The notes under the pieces are model-generated. The model had not been told where the DNA came from and ran no database searches. It worked only from the letters and a program-made list of their open reading frames with translations. The translations under genes and the position numbers were made by a program. From NCBI GenBank assembly GCA_000092065.1, contig CP000582.1: a stretch of 64,000 nucleotides of DNA; one strand, given 5' to 3'. Shown here in pieces: positions 3,617 to 57,882 of the stretch (the stretch's first letter is position 1; every line of letters starts with the position of its first letter). This stretch comes from Ostreococcus lucimarinus (Eukaryota).

Positions 3617-5588
3617 AGATATTTTATACGGTTCAATCGCACCAGCCCTTATAAAACATGATGATGAACGATGAGAAAACTATCGCGTCATTAGACCGAA
3701 CCTCAACGCTGGAGTACGGGTTTGTCCAGCTTCAAATACAAAATACCCAGACTAGTGCACTTTAGGAACAACAGCTTTGGAAAACAAGGGTTTGCTTACC
3801 ACGTCCACAGAAGCAGGAAGATATGCGCTGACCTACATATATGATATAACACTCATCAGTAGTTATATTGTCATCGCACCTGTTTCCCATCCTGGCATTT
3901 CTACTTGAGACAGAACGTAGAGTAAAGACCCGAGCGACTTACCTCGAAAGCCTCGACCGAACCGGTGTGCAAGATGCTGAACACTCCACTCAGTGCAATT
4001 CCGTTAAACTCACGCCTCGTTGCGGCGCAGGTTTTGCACTTTGTGATAAGTGAACTACCGCCGGTGTGCTTTTTGTACTTCGACGAAATTCCACGTCCTC
4101 TGTCTGGCCTCGACTTTGCGAATCGCTGATTCGCTTCGTTTTTGATTCCGCGCGCGCGCGATGCCGTTATCGATATTATCATTGCTGCGGTAGAGCTGTT
4201 TGGATCGAACCGCGGGTCGCAACCGTTTTACGTTCGAGCGAGGCCAGTCAGCGCTTCAGTCGGACCTGAGTCGCCGGCTATCGAAGTTTTTTTGTCGAAA
4301 GTGTATACTTGGTAGTGGTAGTTTGCGAATTTAAGTACGCGTAAAAGGGTAAGCACGCGCAAAAGGGTAAGCATGCGTGTATAAGTAAGTAATCGCGTGT
4401 GTCACCTGCTCGATAGCACCTATTTTTTCGGAAGCTCGCCACGTCGAGACGACCCGTCCTTCCCGCGCAGTTGACGGACTTTGCTAGGTGCACGTACGAA
4501 ATACCGTGAAACCTGAGCTGAATTCATCCCTGACCGCGCATGACAAAAGATTGCACGTTCGCGCATTTTTGCGACTCGTCCTCTTCGTTAACGCGAAGGA
4601 GCCCAACCACGGTGAGATTCCAAGATCTTTATTTTCGTTCATTCACAGATGTTGACGAAGGTGAGAGTAAGCTTCAAGTACAAACATCGAGAAGGTCTAG
4701 TGCGCATGTCTATTGTTGCGGGAAAAGTACGCTTTTGAATCGTAGACTCGGCCAACACTTCACAGCTTCGGTATTTCTACAGGATTTTGCTACTCACTCA
4801 ACGCGGACAGTCGTCGAAGCTCGCAGAATAATAGAACTAAGTTCCAGTCTACTATCACTTTTATCGAAATAACCGTTTGAACATTGCAAAAGACAAGCTC
4901 ACTATCAGTAGCCCTAGTACCACAGTAGCGTGGGAGCGGGTTAGACCGCCCCTTCTCCCAACGTGGTTGGTTTGAAAGATAGATGACAAGTAGAAATGGG
5001 CGTATTCTGAAACGTAGCTAGTCGACATGCCTTACAGATACCGCGACACCATGTAACTCAGATCCATCTAGATTTTCTACGGCTTGTTCACTGTCTAACC
5101 TAGCCAATTCATTAGACAGAGTGAAAGCTTGTGTCACCGATCTCACCTGGAAACATAAGTCACAACTACCGTCTTTCCTGAGTGTTTGCGCATGTCAACG
5201 TCTGATACTTTGCCAAAAGCCCCGAAGACATGTTCAATGTCCTGTCTGGACATAGATTCCACAATTGGACTAAGCTGCACTTTACTACCGGTAAACGTGC
5301 TCTTCATCTCTCGCAAGTGATGAATGGCCAGGTTGGGTGAAGGCTCTTCTGTCGCCAAATGTGTTTCGGACAATATATGTTTCGAACAAAGCTATAACAG
5401 ACACTATCGCATGGACCGCCGCATTGAGCCACGTAGACGGTTTCTGAGCACTGGTACGACTGGCACGTTCGCCGACGAAATGTCACTCCTGGCAGTTGGG
5501 CCTCGAAACCCTCGACGGGGATTGAACTAAATCCTGGATTCTCGCTTTGCGTATAATATCACACAATAATCGAAGACATTGTTGATAG

Positions 5589-8668: not shown

Positions 8669-8799
8669 GGAAAAATTTATATATCGCCCCTTTAGAGAGT
8701 ACCTACACACATGACGAGTCATGAACCGTGGATATATACGTATTTAATACGTATCATGTGTGTAGGTACTCTCTAAAGGGGCGATATATAAATTTTTCC
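8669..8799. mobile_element. Foldback element, about 130 bp. It is essentially two inverted copies of the 46-bp terminus GGAAAAATTTATATATCGCCCCTTTAGAGAGTACCTACACACATGA, and belongs to the same TIR family as the MULE-like element at 24620.
   Basis: A near-perfect palindrome seen directly. It shares its termini with 24620-24700, 25383-25515 and 50662-50714. It lies in the 3' flank of eIF2alpha. Confidence 0.6.
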
Positions 8800-10745: not shown

Positions 10746-11252
10746 ATGATGCGACTTCGCAATAAAGGTGGTCGTCTTCAATTCGATGAGATGAATTATC
10801 ACGGCCTTTCCTCTCAATCGCTCAGTTCTGTTTCAGAGCTAGACTGGTATGCGTTATTCGTATTTGACAGCTCAAATAGGCGTTGTGACACTTAAGATTC
10901 CAGGTTCATCGCTGTATCCAGGGCTACATTCTCAGAAGAACAATTTCCTTCACACGATGATATTGAAGTATTTCGGATCCCAGGTGTGGGATCTATAAAA
11001 TCCAAGAAGCTCAGAAATATTCACCTCTGACAGGACATGTTGCCATCAATCTCAATAAAGGCACGTGGCATGCTGGTCCCCTTTTTAGCGTAAGTATCGT
11101 GATTCGAATGCTGTGTCTCTGAATCTGATGGTTGTGAATATAAGGAAGACGAGCGGGATTTCTTAAACCTCGAACTGATGGATACAAACACGAAAGATCG
11201 TTATGGTCACAAGTATGAGGACAGTGGAACTCGTTTCACAATAGAACTGTGA
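10746..11252 (+). CDS. Possible ureidoglycolate hydrolase-like (cupin) protein, multi-exon.
   Basis: The exon fragment HVAINLNKGTWHAGPLF...DFLNLELMD resembles the GVWHHPL core of ureidoglycolate lyase. Exon structure is not resolved. Confidence 0.2.
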
Positions 11253-13265: not shown

Positions 13266-13419
13266 TTATATGTCATATCCGTATGTATTACTTTCCACGC
13301 CCTAATGTATGGGGTGTTAGCACTTCTCGATCGCCACGCGCGCGTTGTGGCGTCGTCGCGAGTTATTAGCACTTCGACGGCGCGCACATATTAGGGACGT
13401 GGAAAGTAATACATACTGA
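13266..13419. mobile_element. MITE family B, copy 1. About 150 bp, a near-palindrome with termini CAGTATCCGTATGTATTACTTTCCACG ... CGTGGAAAGTAATACATACTG.
   Basis: A second near-identical copy sits at 57736-57882. The internal sequence is a perfect hairpin around CGCCACGCGCGCGTTGTGGCG. Confidence 0.65.
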
Positions 13420-23428: not shown

Positions 23429-24290
23429 CTAATTTGTCTTGTACAGTTCGTTCACGTTGACTTCCAACTTTGTTTCCTTCTCGACAAACCAATAGCTATC
23501 ATCGTGGCACTTTTTTTCCGGGTGCGGCTCATGCATCGCTCTGTTTCCCAACATCTCAGGTATGGGTGGATTTTCGTATTCTCCGCAACGTACACGCTCT
23601 GACGAGCTAGATTTATTTGTTTCAGAAGAAAGAACAAAAACTTGCATCCCGTCACTGTACTCGTCGTCTGTGGCGAGGAGTAGTCTGTAATGTGGAATTA
23701 GGTTTTCACTGCCAAATGGGCTAGGGACTTGCAATGTCGTTCCAGTGGGCGCACTTGTTGCGATCAGCATCGCACGCGATAAAGCAGCACATTCAAGCAT
23801 TTCACTTTCAGGGATAAAGATTCCAGCCTAGACGAATCGTAAGATATGCATAGGGCTCTGCAGTCATACAAACCTCGTGTTGAGTATCAGCAAAAATGGA
23901 GCGGATGATTTCTTTCATCTGGTCCAGCTTGTCATCAACCACTGTGTTGGATGCAACATTCGCCTGAAATCAATCGTCAACATGCTTCAGTCAGGTGTAC
24001 GATATATTTACCTGGTGCTCATATTCTGCCAAGCTAGGCTGGGAGTGCACGTGTCGTAAAACTACTTTATTCTTCGAAACTTTGGTAACCAAGCCGATTC
24101 CCTCTAGTACGTTCGTTATATCGTATATTCTCCGCTTCTGCACTAGCAGCGCGACGGCAGCCTCGTTTAGATCGAGAGTTCCTTTCGGCGACTCGCGCAG
24201 CAGGGTCATGAATCTCGTCGTCAACAAACCGAGGGAGCTATGTAAGACCTTGATATAAATGGGGGATGCGTACGATGAAAGTGTCCTCAC
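23429..24290 (-). CDS. E2F-family transcription factor, partial model. DNA-binding exon at 23991..24290 and dimerisation/marked-box exon at 23429..23800.
   Basis: [50 protein letters not shown] is the E2F winged-helix DNA-binding signature. Confidence 0.65.
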
Positions 24291-24619
24291 CTATCAAATC
24301 GACTTGCACCTGGTTTTGGTAGCATCGATCCGTGTACACGAATATAACCGTAGGAAGGCGATAATTCAGCGCATATTTGCTTAGAGTGTTAACGCATTCG
24401 GCGCGATCGACTGAATATTACCGTAAAACGGTACACGTACTTGAATATGATTCTGCGAATCCTGAATTTGTTCGCTCGTACGCAAGTCGTCTACGATAGC
24501 TCACAGTGATGAGCGTCGCTGTTCGTTCCGCCGTGCAGCTGCAACCCGAACAGCAACGATTCCCCGGCCGGATACAGCTCAACCGCTCTCGATTTGCCAA
24601 CCAAGACTATTTCTGAGAG

Positions 24620-25515
24620 GGAAAAATTTATATATCGCACCTTTAGAGAGTACCTACACACATGACGAGTCATGAACCGTGGATATATACGTATTTTACA
24701 CCGTTTAGTTCTAAAAGTTTGATTCTACAACATCTACGAGAGGTAGTTCCTAATGCTAATTTGCTCGCCTTTGCTTGCCTTGCGTTTGTGTTCATCGACC
24801 ATCTTCTCGTGCCAGCCCCTCTTCCTGCTCAACGCCGTATCACCCGCCGCGCCTCTCATAGGAATCGCAACCAGGTTCGACATACCGAGCACACCATCGC
24901 CGTCCATTTTGCTATTCTTGGACATGTTTTGAGACATCTCTCTGTGTGTCTTCAAGTTGTGCATGAAACGTTGAAGTTTGTTGAGCGTGTCTGTGATGTG
25001 TGCGGCTTCATCAGGCTCGAACGTGAATTCTGGATCGAGTGCGAGTTGTGTCAACTCGGCGGTCATTTGTGCCCAGCGTAACTTTACACTCACGTTGTCG
25101 AAAGCTGCTCCAAGGCTTCTCCGATGAGTTGGTAGAGAGGCTTCAACATTATCTGGAATCGCTGGAGTCACGTGTCTCCTGGAATCGCTGGAGTCACGTG
25201 TCTCCTGGAGCCCGGACGATACGTGAAGAGCATCACCGAACGGATCGTCGAAGGGATCATCGTCGCACTCGTCTTCCATCCGACCATCGCCCGCACGCGC
25301 GACGACAACTGGCGCGACAGGCGTGGAAAAGACACGAGGCGAACGTGTTTTTCACCAAGGTAGGAATACTCTATTGTAGATGGCACTAAACGGTGTAAAA
25401 TACGTATATATCCACGGTTCATGACTCGTCATGTGTGTAGGTACTCTCTAAAGGTGCGATATATAAATTTTTCCTTCTGAGGTACTCTCTAAAGGTGCGA
25501 TATATAAATTTTTCC
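24620..25515. mobile_element. Mutator-like (MULE-type) non-autonomous DNA transposon of about 0.9 kb. It has ~88-bp terminal inverted repeats and a 9-bp target-site duplication TTCTGAGAG (24611..24619 and 25516..25524).
   Basis: The left end GGAAAAATTTATATATCGCACCTTTAGAGAGTACCTACACACATGACGAGTCATGAACCGTGGATATATACGTATTTTACACCGTTTAGT is exactly reverse-complemented at 25383..25515. Flanking 9-bp direct repeats are present. Internally there is a 26-bp tandem duplication (25155..25206) and a 41-bp tandem duplication of the right terminus (25441..25522). Confidence 0.65.
24734..25279 (-). CDS. Hypothetical ORF carried inside the MULE-like element.
   Basis: 181-aa ORF lying wholly between the TIRs, acidic at the N-terminus, with no motif I recognise. 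It may be a captured fragment rather than a functional gene. Confidence 0.2.
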   Translation of the reverse strand: MEDECDDDPFDDPFGDALHVSSGLQETRDSSDSRRHVTPAIPDNVEASLPTHRRSLGAAFDNVSVKLRWAQMTAELTQLALDPEFTFEPDEAAHITDTLNKLQRFMHNLKTHREMSQNMSKNSKMDGDGVLGMSNLVAIPMRGAAGDTALSRKRGWHEKMVDEHKRKASKGEQISIRNYLS

Positions 25516-25833
25516 TTCTGAGAGCAGTCCATGTCGTCGTAAAATTAACAAAATGATTTAATATGTACCCCTAGTATCGTTAAATACTGTAGTATTTGGA
25601 AGTATTTGGATAAAGCCGTTGGAATTAAAACCAAGAATGCTGGAAGAGTCTGCCCTATCTGCCTATCGTTCCGTAAGTGCGCGAAGAGACTGACGCGCAC
25701 TGGAACCGTCGATACAGTTATATCGGTTCAACGACGGTTCAACGACGGCCGCACGTGTATTTCATTTGTGAACACCGGTGCACCATAATACTTCGCGAAC
25801 GAGTATAACAAGAAAAGCCCAAAGCCCGAAGGT

Positions 25834-50284: not shown

Positions 50285-50661
50285 CGTCGCTCTTTGTGGC
50301 CTTTCGTTTTCTTTGACGCGACGGGTCGGTTGCCTACGAGATATAGCCACTATTACCACGCGCTACCGTCTTCGAAATTAACGGCGACTATTCGAAAAAC
50401 CGCGACGAGTTCGCCCTTCGCTAGCCGGGGCTTTGTTGGCAGCTGGGAGGATTCTTAAAGGACCGTTTGCGTGTTTGCTATCAGGCCGACTTCAGGCCGG
50501 CAAAAGCATGTTATATATTAGCTAATTCCAATCACAGTAACATATGTGACAGAGACCGCAAAATACGCCATCTTCACGACTCCGATTCATATACATGTGA
50601 ATATATTCAAACTCATAAAGTGCCTATCAGTCCAGAGCTTATCGTTACACCGCGCTGCCAT

Positions 50662-50714
50662 CATGACTCGTCATGTGTGTAGGTACTCTCTAAAGGGGCG
50701 ATATAAATTTTTCC
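50662..50714. repeat. Solo terminal fragment of about 53 bp from the MULE/foldback TIR family (CATGACTCGTCATGTGTGTAGGTACTCTCTAAAGGGGCGATATAAATTTTTCC). It lies immediately upstream of MCM7.
   Basis: Matches the right terminus of the elements at 8669 and 24620. Confidence 0.55.
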
Positions 50715-54992: not shown

Positions 54993-55165
54993 ACTCGCGA
55001 TTGCGAGTGGAAACAGCCAGCTACTATGCTGCTATCCACCTATCCACCCGCAAAGTCAGGGTCACCGACGTACAGTCCACCGTGACTGCTCAGATATTCA
55101 GGCAGGGAAAAAAATTATGCGGGCGCGCCATCTCTATCTATTGGAGAAAATTTTCACACAATACG

Positions 55166-57735: not shown

Positions 57736-57882
57736 CAGTATCCGTATGTATTACTTTCCACGCCCTAATGTATGGGGTGTTAGCACTTCTCGATCGCCAC
57801 GCGCGCGTTGTGGCGTCGTCGCGAGTTATTAGCACTTCGACGGCGCGCACATATTAGGGACGTGGAAAGTAATACATACTGA
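57736..57882. mobile_element. MITE family B, copy 2. It is near-identical to 13266..13419 and is flanked by an 8-bp direct repeat TAACATTA.
   Basis: Same termini and internal palindrome as copy 1. The flanks are ...t[TAACATTA]a-element-a[TAACATTA]ct. Confidence 0.65.

Follow-up and report, generated by a model that had tools for sequence, protein, structure and literature searches.

A probable internally deleted Mutator-like element in Ostreococcus lucimarinus and its relatives in marine metagenomes

Structure of the element in the O. lucimarinus window

Within the 64,000-nt stretch of O. lucimarinus DNA analyzed here (hereafter, the window), positions 24620–25515 are spanned by a Mutator-like element (MULE), which is very probably a non-autonomous, internally deleted copy of an Ostreococcus MULE of ~4.4 kb. 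The window has a G+C content of 44–50%, and it almost certainly comes from chromosome 2 of O. lucimarinus CCE9901, within that chromosome's low-GC "outlier" region. The neighbours of the element are divergently transcribed E2F and DUF212 genes, one on each side. Both of the cell-cycle genes named in an earlier note on this DNA are real: the E2F gene (23991–24290, minus strand) is identified by PF02319 (E = 3e-25), and the window's MCM7 ORF is 100% identical to XP_001416209.1 of O. lucimarinus CCE9901.

MULEs are characterized by target site duplications (TSDs) of ~9 bp (range 8–11) and by long terminal inverted repeats (TIRs), which extend over tens to hundreds of base pairs and are typical rather than universal; autonomous members encode a MURA-type DDE transposase (PF10551). 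The window element is flanked by two copies of TTCTGAGAG (24611–24619 and 25516–25524), which match at 9/9 positions, an agreement that has a chance probability of ~4e-6. The same junction between the TTCTGAGAG flank and the tip is also present in the metagenome contigs L028 and L040. The TIRs are 90 nt long and 100% complementary. The arm adjoining the 3′ end of the ORF lies at 24620–24709 (plus strand), contains the palindrome CATGACGAGTCATG, and shows 98–100% identity to the termini at ~33 other flanks, whereas the arm adjoining the 5′ end of the ORF lies at 25385–25474 (minus strand) and represents the inner, complete right terminus. The arm length given by the tool was 97 nt (98%), in which the surplus consists of 7 partly palindromic flank bases. 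These features bear out the earlier description of a Mutator-like non-autonomous element with long TIRs and a 9-bp TSD; the TIRs are long and perfect as described there, but their length is 90 nt rather than ~88 bp.

The two internal tandem repeats mentioned in the earlier note, of 26 and 41 bp, were both seen, the latter comprising, as stated there, the right terminus plus part of the TSD. The 41-bp duplication (25439–25479/25480–25520) consists of the last 36 nt of the right TIR and TTCTG of the TSD, with a 2-nt AG microhomology. Because the repeated unit joins the TIR end to TTCTG, the element has two right tips: an inner one at 25474, followed by TTCTGAGgt, and an outer one at 25515, followed by the perfect TSD. 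The 41-bp duplication is carried by contig L004 and is missing from the remnant allele L013; it is later than the insertion and created the second, outer tip. The 26-bp duplication (25153–25178/25179–25204) lies exactly on the junction of the internal deletion, and the TCCAG microhomology at the bounds of its unit fits replication slippage.

The parent element and its transposase

The parent element was obtained as a composite of three metagenome contigs, the overlaps of which were 94–99% identical. It is 4401 bp long and contains one ORF of 1363 aa. In the orientation of the ORF, the window element corresponds to positions 1–289 of the composite (99.65% identity) followed by positions 3849–4401 (90.6% identity). 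On the minus strand of the window, the 3′ portion of the parent (the C-terminal coding tail, 3′ UTR, and TIR; composite 3849–4401) occupies 24620–25160, and the 5′ portion (the 5′ UTR and first 31 codons; composite 91–289) occupies 25186–25384. Approximately 3.56 kb of the parent interior is missing, and only the two 90-nt TIRs, the UTRs, and the first 31 and last ~140 codons have been kept. With only these codons, the window copy is therefore non-autonomous, and a tblastn search of the window with the 1363-aa composite detected nothing beyond the region of the 181-aa ORF.

The composite ORF encodes a Peptidase_C48 domain (PF02902, Ulp1/SENP) at residues 548–715 (E = 8.5e-19), and its protease part matches SENP1/2 structures at ~1e-21; the MULE domain (PF10551) follows at residues 833–931 (E = 1.4e-10). 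An exhaustive search identified four single full-length proteins containing both domains (P0217, P0218, P0221, and P0223; 1344–1420 aa), and the protease–transposase architecture is therefore not a joining artefact. The E values for PF10551 in the composite and these four proteins ranged from 1e-10 to 9e-8. P0184 also links the N-terminal and C-terminal pieces and adds the Ulp1 protease domain. The connection with the family termini is visible on individual contigs. On L037, a 655-aa ORF with PF10551 (E = 4.5e-11; 43.5 bits vs a cutoff of 27.6) precedes the C-terminal piece and stops 114 nt short of the family TIR, and on L058, the contig encoding P0217, the GGAAAAATTTATATCTCACACC... tip (GGAAAAATTTATAT...) is located 240 nt upstream of the ATG. 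A MULE-transposase partner, the search for which had been proposed earlier, was thus found in the form of relatives that have the same termini and coding ends and encode PF10551; among the metagenome contigs, none carried a TIR, the full ORF, and a second TIR together, and the window contains no autonomous copy.

From its N-terminus, the parent protein is composed of an acidic N-terminus, a Cys-rich region, an Ulp1/SENP-type protease, the MULE domain, a degenerate SWIM-like CxCx8C motif, and a basic C-terminal tail. The D...D...E and CxxH (WCQFH) motifs were recognized by eye. A SWIM zinc finger on the C-terminal side of the catalytic domain is common in MULEs but not universal; here, the motif VKCSCALGRNGQVCAPK (CxCx8C, with no His) sits at the SWIM position, and a search for PF04434 gave no match. 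Strong conservation across subfamilies is seen in the C-terminal tail, which includes a basic NLS-like stretch. The 313-aa Cys-rich region at the N-terminus had no match in Pfam, and its AlphaFold2 (AF2) model was unusable (pLDDT 40.7). In MULE transposases, an N-terminal zinc-finger DNA-binding domain of the WRKY-GCM1/FAR1 type has been described (PMC1702500).

Origin of the 181-aa ORF

The ORF of the window element (24734–25279, minus strand; 181 aa) is an in-frame fusion of transposase residues ~1–31 with the last ~140 residues. Its two halves match the 1363-aa composite protein at residues 11–31 and 1216–1363, and ORF residues 53–167 align with residues 1227–1340 of the 1345-aa P0217 (E = 2e-21). 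The N-terminal piece begins with MEDECDDDPFDDPFGD... and extends in P0055, L045, and L046 into the 313-aa Cys-rich region. A Pfam search with the ORF produced no significant match, and when partial relatives were included, only a sub-threshold match to DUF7739 was obtained. The earlier characterization as an acidic ORF without transposase motifs is accurate insofar as there is no Pfam domain, but the ORF consists of the transposase's own N- and C-termini.

How the frame came to be open can be read from its closest relatives. L007 has the same deletion junction without the 26-bp duplication, and its N-terminal frame stops after ...ETRDSSDSR. The duplication, which L002 has in common with the window copy, adds 2 nt to the frame, and the C-terminal tail is back in frame in both. 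Most likely, the 181-aa ORF is a functionless by-product. It looks unconstrained, given L007, which lacks the frame-restoring duplication, the altered C-termini of L002 and P0001, and an AF2 model with no globular fold.

A quite unlikely alternative is that the fusion of the N- and C-terminal parts is a functional protein that regulates or inhibits transposition in the manner of KP, the P-element repressor, and that the 26-bp duplication was selected. The duplication does turn an out-of-frame junction like that of L007 into an open 181-aa frame, and the independent derivatives P0003, P0007, P0016, and P0038 are also in frame. However, these copies were found by using the fused ORF as the query, which introduces an ascertainment bias, and out-of-frame derivatives exist (L007, L045, and L046). 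Even the close copies P0001 and P0002 have 3′-end frameshifts or altered C-termini. The conservation of the C-terminal tail and its NLS-like stretch across subfamilies, and similarly a dN/dS ratio of 0.32 when the O. lucimarinus copy is compared with that of O. tauri, would fit a functional fusion, but what the tail does in the intact transposase accounts for its conservation. Neither a DNA-binding nor a catalytic domain is present in the fusion. Most of its AF2 model is disordered (pLDDT 57.6), apart from a single helical hairpin and a basic helix at the C-terminus; we judged this model too weak for a fold search.

Still less likely is the Pack-MULE-type origin raised in the earlier note, in which the 181-aa ORF would be a piece of a host gene captured between the TIRs. 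The lack of a transposase Pfam domain in the ORF would be consistent with such an origin, and the sister copy L005, which has a perfect 9-bp TSD, contains an unrelated ORF, indicating that cargo capture may occur in the family. Nevertheless, everything between the TIRs of the window copy aligns collinearly with one or other end of the parent (at the nucleotide identities given above), the C-terminal part of the ORF matches approximately the last 115 residues of the 1345-aa Ulp1-MULE protein, and the ORF joins two transposase ends across an internal deletion. Furthermore, the 61 protein homologues of the ORF, nearly all from marine metagenomes with one O. tauri "hypothetical protein", include no separate host gene, and those examined were fragments derived from transposable elements. 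The idea of a gene-fragment carrier was therefore abandoned in favour of a derivative of the parent MULE. For annotation, this result explains a family of "hypothetical proteins", with dozens of members in marine metagenomes and the annotated member BE221DRAFT_64854 in O. tauri, as truncated transposase fusions and not host genes.

Other copies of the family and their target site duplications

A scan of metagenome contigs with 25 nt of the TIR identified 38 loci, in all of which the similarity ended exactly at GGAAAAATTTATAT (the GG boundary). Beside intact tips there were 35 distinct 12-nt flanks; ~33 were genomic, and two were the duplicated tip of the window element itself. The terminus thus occurs beside ~33 unrelated flanks, as expected for the multi-copy family that had been proposed. 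In the window, the 35-nt tip pattern had five matches, compared with none expected. Neither the TIR nor the transposase was detected when viral contigs were scanned, so this collection offers no indication of a prasinovirus vector, and scans of prokaryote genome contigs likewise gave no match.

The presence of TSDs at other copies had been named beforehand as a test of the classification. Perfect 9-bp TSDs flank L005 (1134 bp; CTCTTGACG, 9/9) and L016 (98 bp; CCGAAAACC, 9/9, within a microsatellite), and L012 (807 bp) is flanked by an 8-bp TSD (TCGGATCG, 8/8). The 268-bp member at L036 has an imperfect 9-bp TSD, and the corresponding site in the window is unoccupied. The commonest TSD length in the family is 9 bp. 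No TSD was present at the metagenome copies L002 and L003, in which one flank is joined to opposite orientations of the element, and short-read contigs are therefore unreliable across a 90-nt inverted repeat. The missing TSDs of L002, L003, and L036 were considered as evidence against a MULE but dropped, given the unreliable assembly of the first two and the degenerate TSD of L036 that is visible against the empty site in the window. In the O. tauri copy L001, the left tip is degraded and the TSD is not readable.

Assignment to another superfamily with an 8-bp TSD (hAT, P, or Merlin), with the MULE link arising as an assembly artefact, deserves almost no weight: although L012 has an 8-bp TSD, the autonomous parent was pieced together from metagenome contigs, and L002 has a Harbinger-type DDE_Tnp_4 gene at a distance of 2 kb, the MULE ORF of L037 and the complete Ulp1-MULE ORF of L058 are each close to a family terminus on a single contig, the coding ends in the window are homologous to the Ulp1-MULE protein, and most TSDs are 9 bp. 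More specifically, the Harbinger gene is outside the TIRs and no 3-bp TSD was seen, and hAT elements, which have 8-bp TSDs, short TIRs, and a hAT transposase, do not match a family with mostly 9-bp TSDs, a 90-nt TIR, and a linked MULE-type transposase.

Several members of the MULE family have junctions of their own. L012 has an independent deletion junction (309|3893), and other independent junctions are found in P0003, P0007, P0016, P0038, L045, and L046; the family therefore loses its middle repeatedly. L005 contains an unrelated membrane-type ORF of 233 aa. In the P0182 subfamily (72% amino acid identity), the right terminus is related, and the left TIR has no match.

Two smaller derivatives are located in the window. 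The first is a foldback at 8669–8799, with TIR positions 1–77 facing positions 1–46, which folds as a near-perfect hairpin (z = −18.8). It has the same terminus, as the earlier note recognized, but is 131 bp long rather than 130 bp and lies 30 nt upstream of the ORF of an RPC82-type (RNA polymerase III) gene, not a cell-cycle gene. MITEs are short, non-coding, bounded by TIRs, and flanked by the TSD of their superfamily. The foldback is short, non-coding, and derived from the TIR, and has no TSD (flanks, ggcttcgcg / actgttcag), whereas the small derivatives L016 and L036, which resemble it, have a 9-bp TSD (imperfect in L036). The second is a solo fragment of the TIR tip at 50661–50714 (54 nt, minus strand), located 22 nt upstream of the MCM7 ORF. 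The only direct repeat at the flanks of this fragment, which the earlier note placed next to the MCM7 5′ UTR, is the 4-bp GCCA, and a wild haplotype has no insertion at the site. The suggestion that derivatives occur near promoters of cell-cycle genes over-read three insertions, one of which neighbours a Pol III subunit gene; such a link is unsupported because the intergenic DNA of a gene-dense genome is mostly promoter-proximal.

We propose that a full-length transposase made elsewhere would bind the TIRs and excise the element, which would then be pasted into a target cut with a 9-bp stagger, the repair of which would produce the TSD. Interrupted repair after excision is known to generate internal deletions in Mu, Ac/Ds, and P elements, and the internal deletion of the window copy may have arisen in the same way. 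The two microhomology-bounded tandem duplications came later, and the 26-bp one happens to restore the frame. Further decay products of the same process probably include the foldback and the solo fragment, as well as the remnant allele of 65 nt described below.

Comparison with other elements

As in the maize Mu1-type/MuDR deletion derivatives, Ds derived from Ac, and deleted P elements, the internal transposase region has been lost here and both ends have been kept. The Mu1-type derivatives also share the long TIRs, the 9-bp TSD, the need for an autonomous partner, and insertion sites close to gene 5′ ends. In contrast to maize MuDR, the parent here encodes, in one ORF of ~1350 aa, an embedded Ulp1 domain and a long, conserved tail at the C-terminus. 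Its TIRs measure 90 nt, compared with ~200 in maize Mutator, and the host is a 13-Mb picoalga.

Non-plant MULEs have been described in Fusarium oxysporum (Hop; 99-bp TIRs, 9-bp TSD, and one transposase ORF of 836 aa) and Entamoeba invadens (EMULE-Ei1; 187-bp TIRs, 9-bp TSD, and a transposase of 456 aa) (PMC2725143). Both have the same overall anatomy as the Ostreococcus family, with no detectable close sequence kinship beyond the MULE domain, and PMC2725143 makes no mention of a protease domain in their transposases. Ulp1 domains occur as passengers of plant MULEs and CACTA elements, and the association of Ulp1/C48 with MULEs includes Kaonashi/KIU in the Vandal-type non-TIR MULEs of Arabidopsis, as well as elements in melon, rice, and grapevine (PMC13317346, PMC2528002). 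In Arabidopsis, Ulp1 is encoded by a separate gene of non-TIR MULEs, and its capture has been placed at the time when monocots and eudicots diverged (PMC13317346). In the Ostreococcus family, unlike Kaonashi/KIU, the protease and transposase are in one ORF within a TIR-bearing element of a chlorophyte, so the domain was either captured independently or has been associated with MULEs for longer.

MULEs and other transposons are reported to be concentrated in the low-GC outlier chromosomes (BOC1) of Mamiellales, including O. tauri and O. lucimarinus (bioRxiv 10.1101/2025.04.21.649811). The window element belongs to the same superfamily, clade, and compartment, so MULEs were already known in this group, and the window family adds a member. 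The preprint reports MULE densities and their proximity to PKS genes, and no description of the termini, TSDs, deletion derivatives, or protease fusion of this family was found in it. Our results leave current understanding in place. What they add, for a MULE family from the smallest free-living eukaryotes, is the precise position of the element ends, the rule followed by the TSDs, and a series of deletion derivatives.

Signs of recent activity and a possible transfer between species

Tentatively, this protease-fused MULE family may now be transposing in wild O. lucimarinus and may have crossed horizontally between the lineages of O. tauri and O. lucimarinus long after these had diverged. The first part of this reading is based on a wild contig of 98.6 kb (loci L013 and L036), which is 99.6–99.9% identical to the window over >20 kb, and in which three family sites differ from the window in either the presence or absence of the insertion or its full or remnant state. 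At the main site (L013), the two TSD copies of the wild contig enclose nothing but the terminal 65 nt of the right TIR. One end of this deletion is exactly at the left tip of the element, as expected for cleavage by the transposase followed by faulty repair. The solo fragment upstream of MCM7 is missing from the wild haplotype; the empty site in L036 reads CGCGCTGCCAGATAC, whereas GCCA lies on both sides of the fragment in the window, and this fragment could be a remnant of an insertion with the TSD GCCAGATAC or filler DNA. Conversely, the target GACTGCTCA at 55084–55092 is unoccupied in the window, and the 268-bp family member of L036 is inserted there with an imperfect duplication (GACTGCTCA ... 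GATGGTCA, the latter being the right copy). These three differences from an almost identical haplotype point to recent activity of the family, as far as can be judged from sequence comparison. That such insertion polymorphisms occur within a single stretch of 64 kb suggests continuing transposon activity in the low-GC outlier region of chromosome 2, and ongoing transposition would bear on the hypervariability of this compartment.

The second part concerns the low divergence between species, which, together with the one-ORF protease–transposase fusion found outside the window, offers leads for studying how transposons behave, and pass horizontally between hosts, in marine picoplankton. The window copy and L001, the copy from O. 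tauri RCC1115, are 91.4% identical across the part that codes for the C-terminus, with a pS of 0.18, a dS of 0.20, and the dN/dS ratio given above. In contrast, the host MCM7 genes of O. tauri and O. lucimarinus are 70% identical and saturated at synonymous sites (pS 0.76). Because the dS of the element is ~0.2 and MCM7 is saturated, this comparison of one host gene with one element segment suggests that the element was transferred after speciation.

Protease-transposase ORFs and the P0182 subfamily

In the autonomous transposase of the family, an Ulp1/SENP cysteine protease domain and the MULE domain share one ORF, as seen in the composite parent element (joined from L046, L055, and L037) and in the proteins P0217 (encoded by contig L058), P0218, P0221, and P0223. 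Judged by eye, the protease domain appears to retain an intact catalytic His and Q...C motif. There were at least four divergent full-length protease-MULE representatives, with lengths of 1344-1420 aa. No protease domain was called in the P0182 subfamily (L047-L054), a 3.4-kb relative with a transposase part that is 72% identical. The right terminus of this subfamily, GGATAAATCTATATATTGCC, abuts at least three distinct flanks; a left TIR matching it was not found, and the shared sequence starts abruptly at CTCTTCCGCGCG. The subfamily could represent a non-TIR or 5'-truncated MULE.

Interspecific similarity and possible cargo

The family copy in O. tauri RCC1115 (L001, KZ155840.1, 4452-6903) and the O. 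lucimarinus element at window 24620-25474 showed 91-97% identity and a dS of 0.20. For host MCM7, identity between the two species was 70%, and synonymous sites were saturated. These values give a hint that the transposon may have passed horizontally from one Ostreococcus species to another. Another family member (L005, 1366-2499), flanked by the perfect 9-bp TSD CTCTTGACG, has an interior unrelated to the transposase, which encodes a 233-aa ORF with one predicted membrane segment and no match in Pfam. The same interior is present in L021, and the L005 element is possibly a Pack-MULE-like cargo carrier.

Breakpoints and flanks of the termini

Breakpoints recurred near TIR positions 33-36 (L003, 11474-11598; window 25439-25520; L016, 2883-2980): the terminal 35-36 nt were present as a tandem extra copy at two independent loci, and one foldback arm ended at position 33. 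Several remnants were broken inside or close to the palindrome CATGACGAGTCATG. Variants of the near-palindromic GCGCGTTCAAAAAACGCGTTCGGGG adjoin a number of termini, one of which belongs to the P0182 subfamily (flanks in L002, L003, L030, L038, L048, and L049). This sequence may represent a favoured insertion target or a different repeat, or it may have arisen in assembly.

Other repeats and a related contig

Two copies of a 142-bp MITE, unrelated to the main MULE family, occur at window 13278-13419 and 57741-57882. They are Stowaway/mariner-like, with the TIR TCCGTATGTATTACTTTCCACG and a TA target duplication. Two wild contigs, L036 and L009, lack the 57.7-kb copy and have the empty-site sequence AACAGTAACATT in its place; therefore, this MITE, too, is polymorphic. 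A fragment with 98% identity to it lies in L005.

The RFC, Rpb3-like, and FAD-monooxygenase genes are surrounded by direct repeats that match perfectly over 300 nt or more (window 40871-41170/44115-44414 and 43727-44026/44886-45185), an arrangement that suggests local segmental duplication. The contig L041 (ENA k141_613156), from a related species, has some genes in common with the window (DUF212 and eIF3c). It bears a further deletion derivative of the family, encoding P0018 (270 aa), with a TIR at 10963-11043 that is 85% identical.
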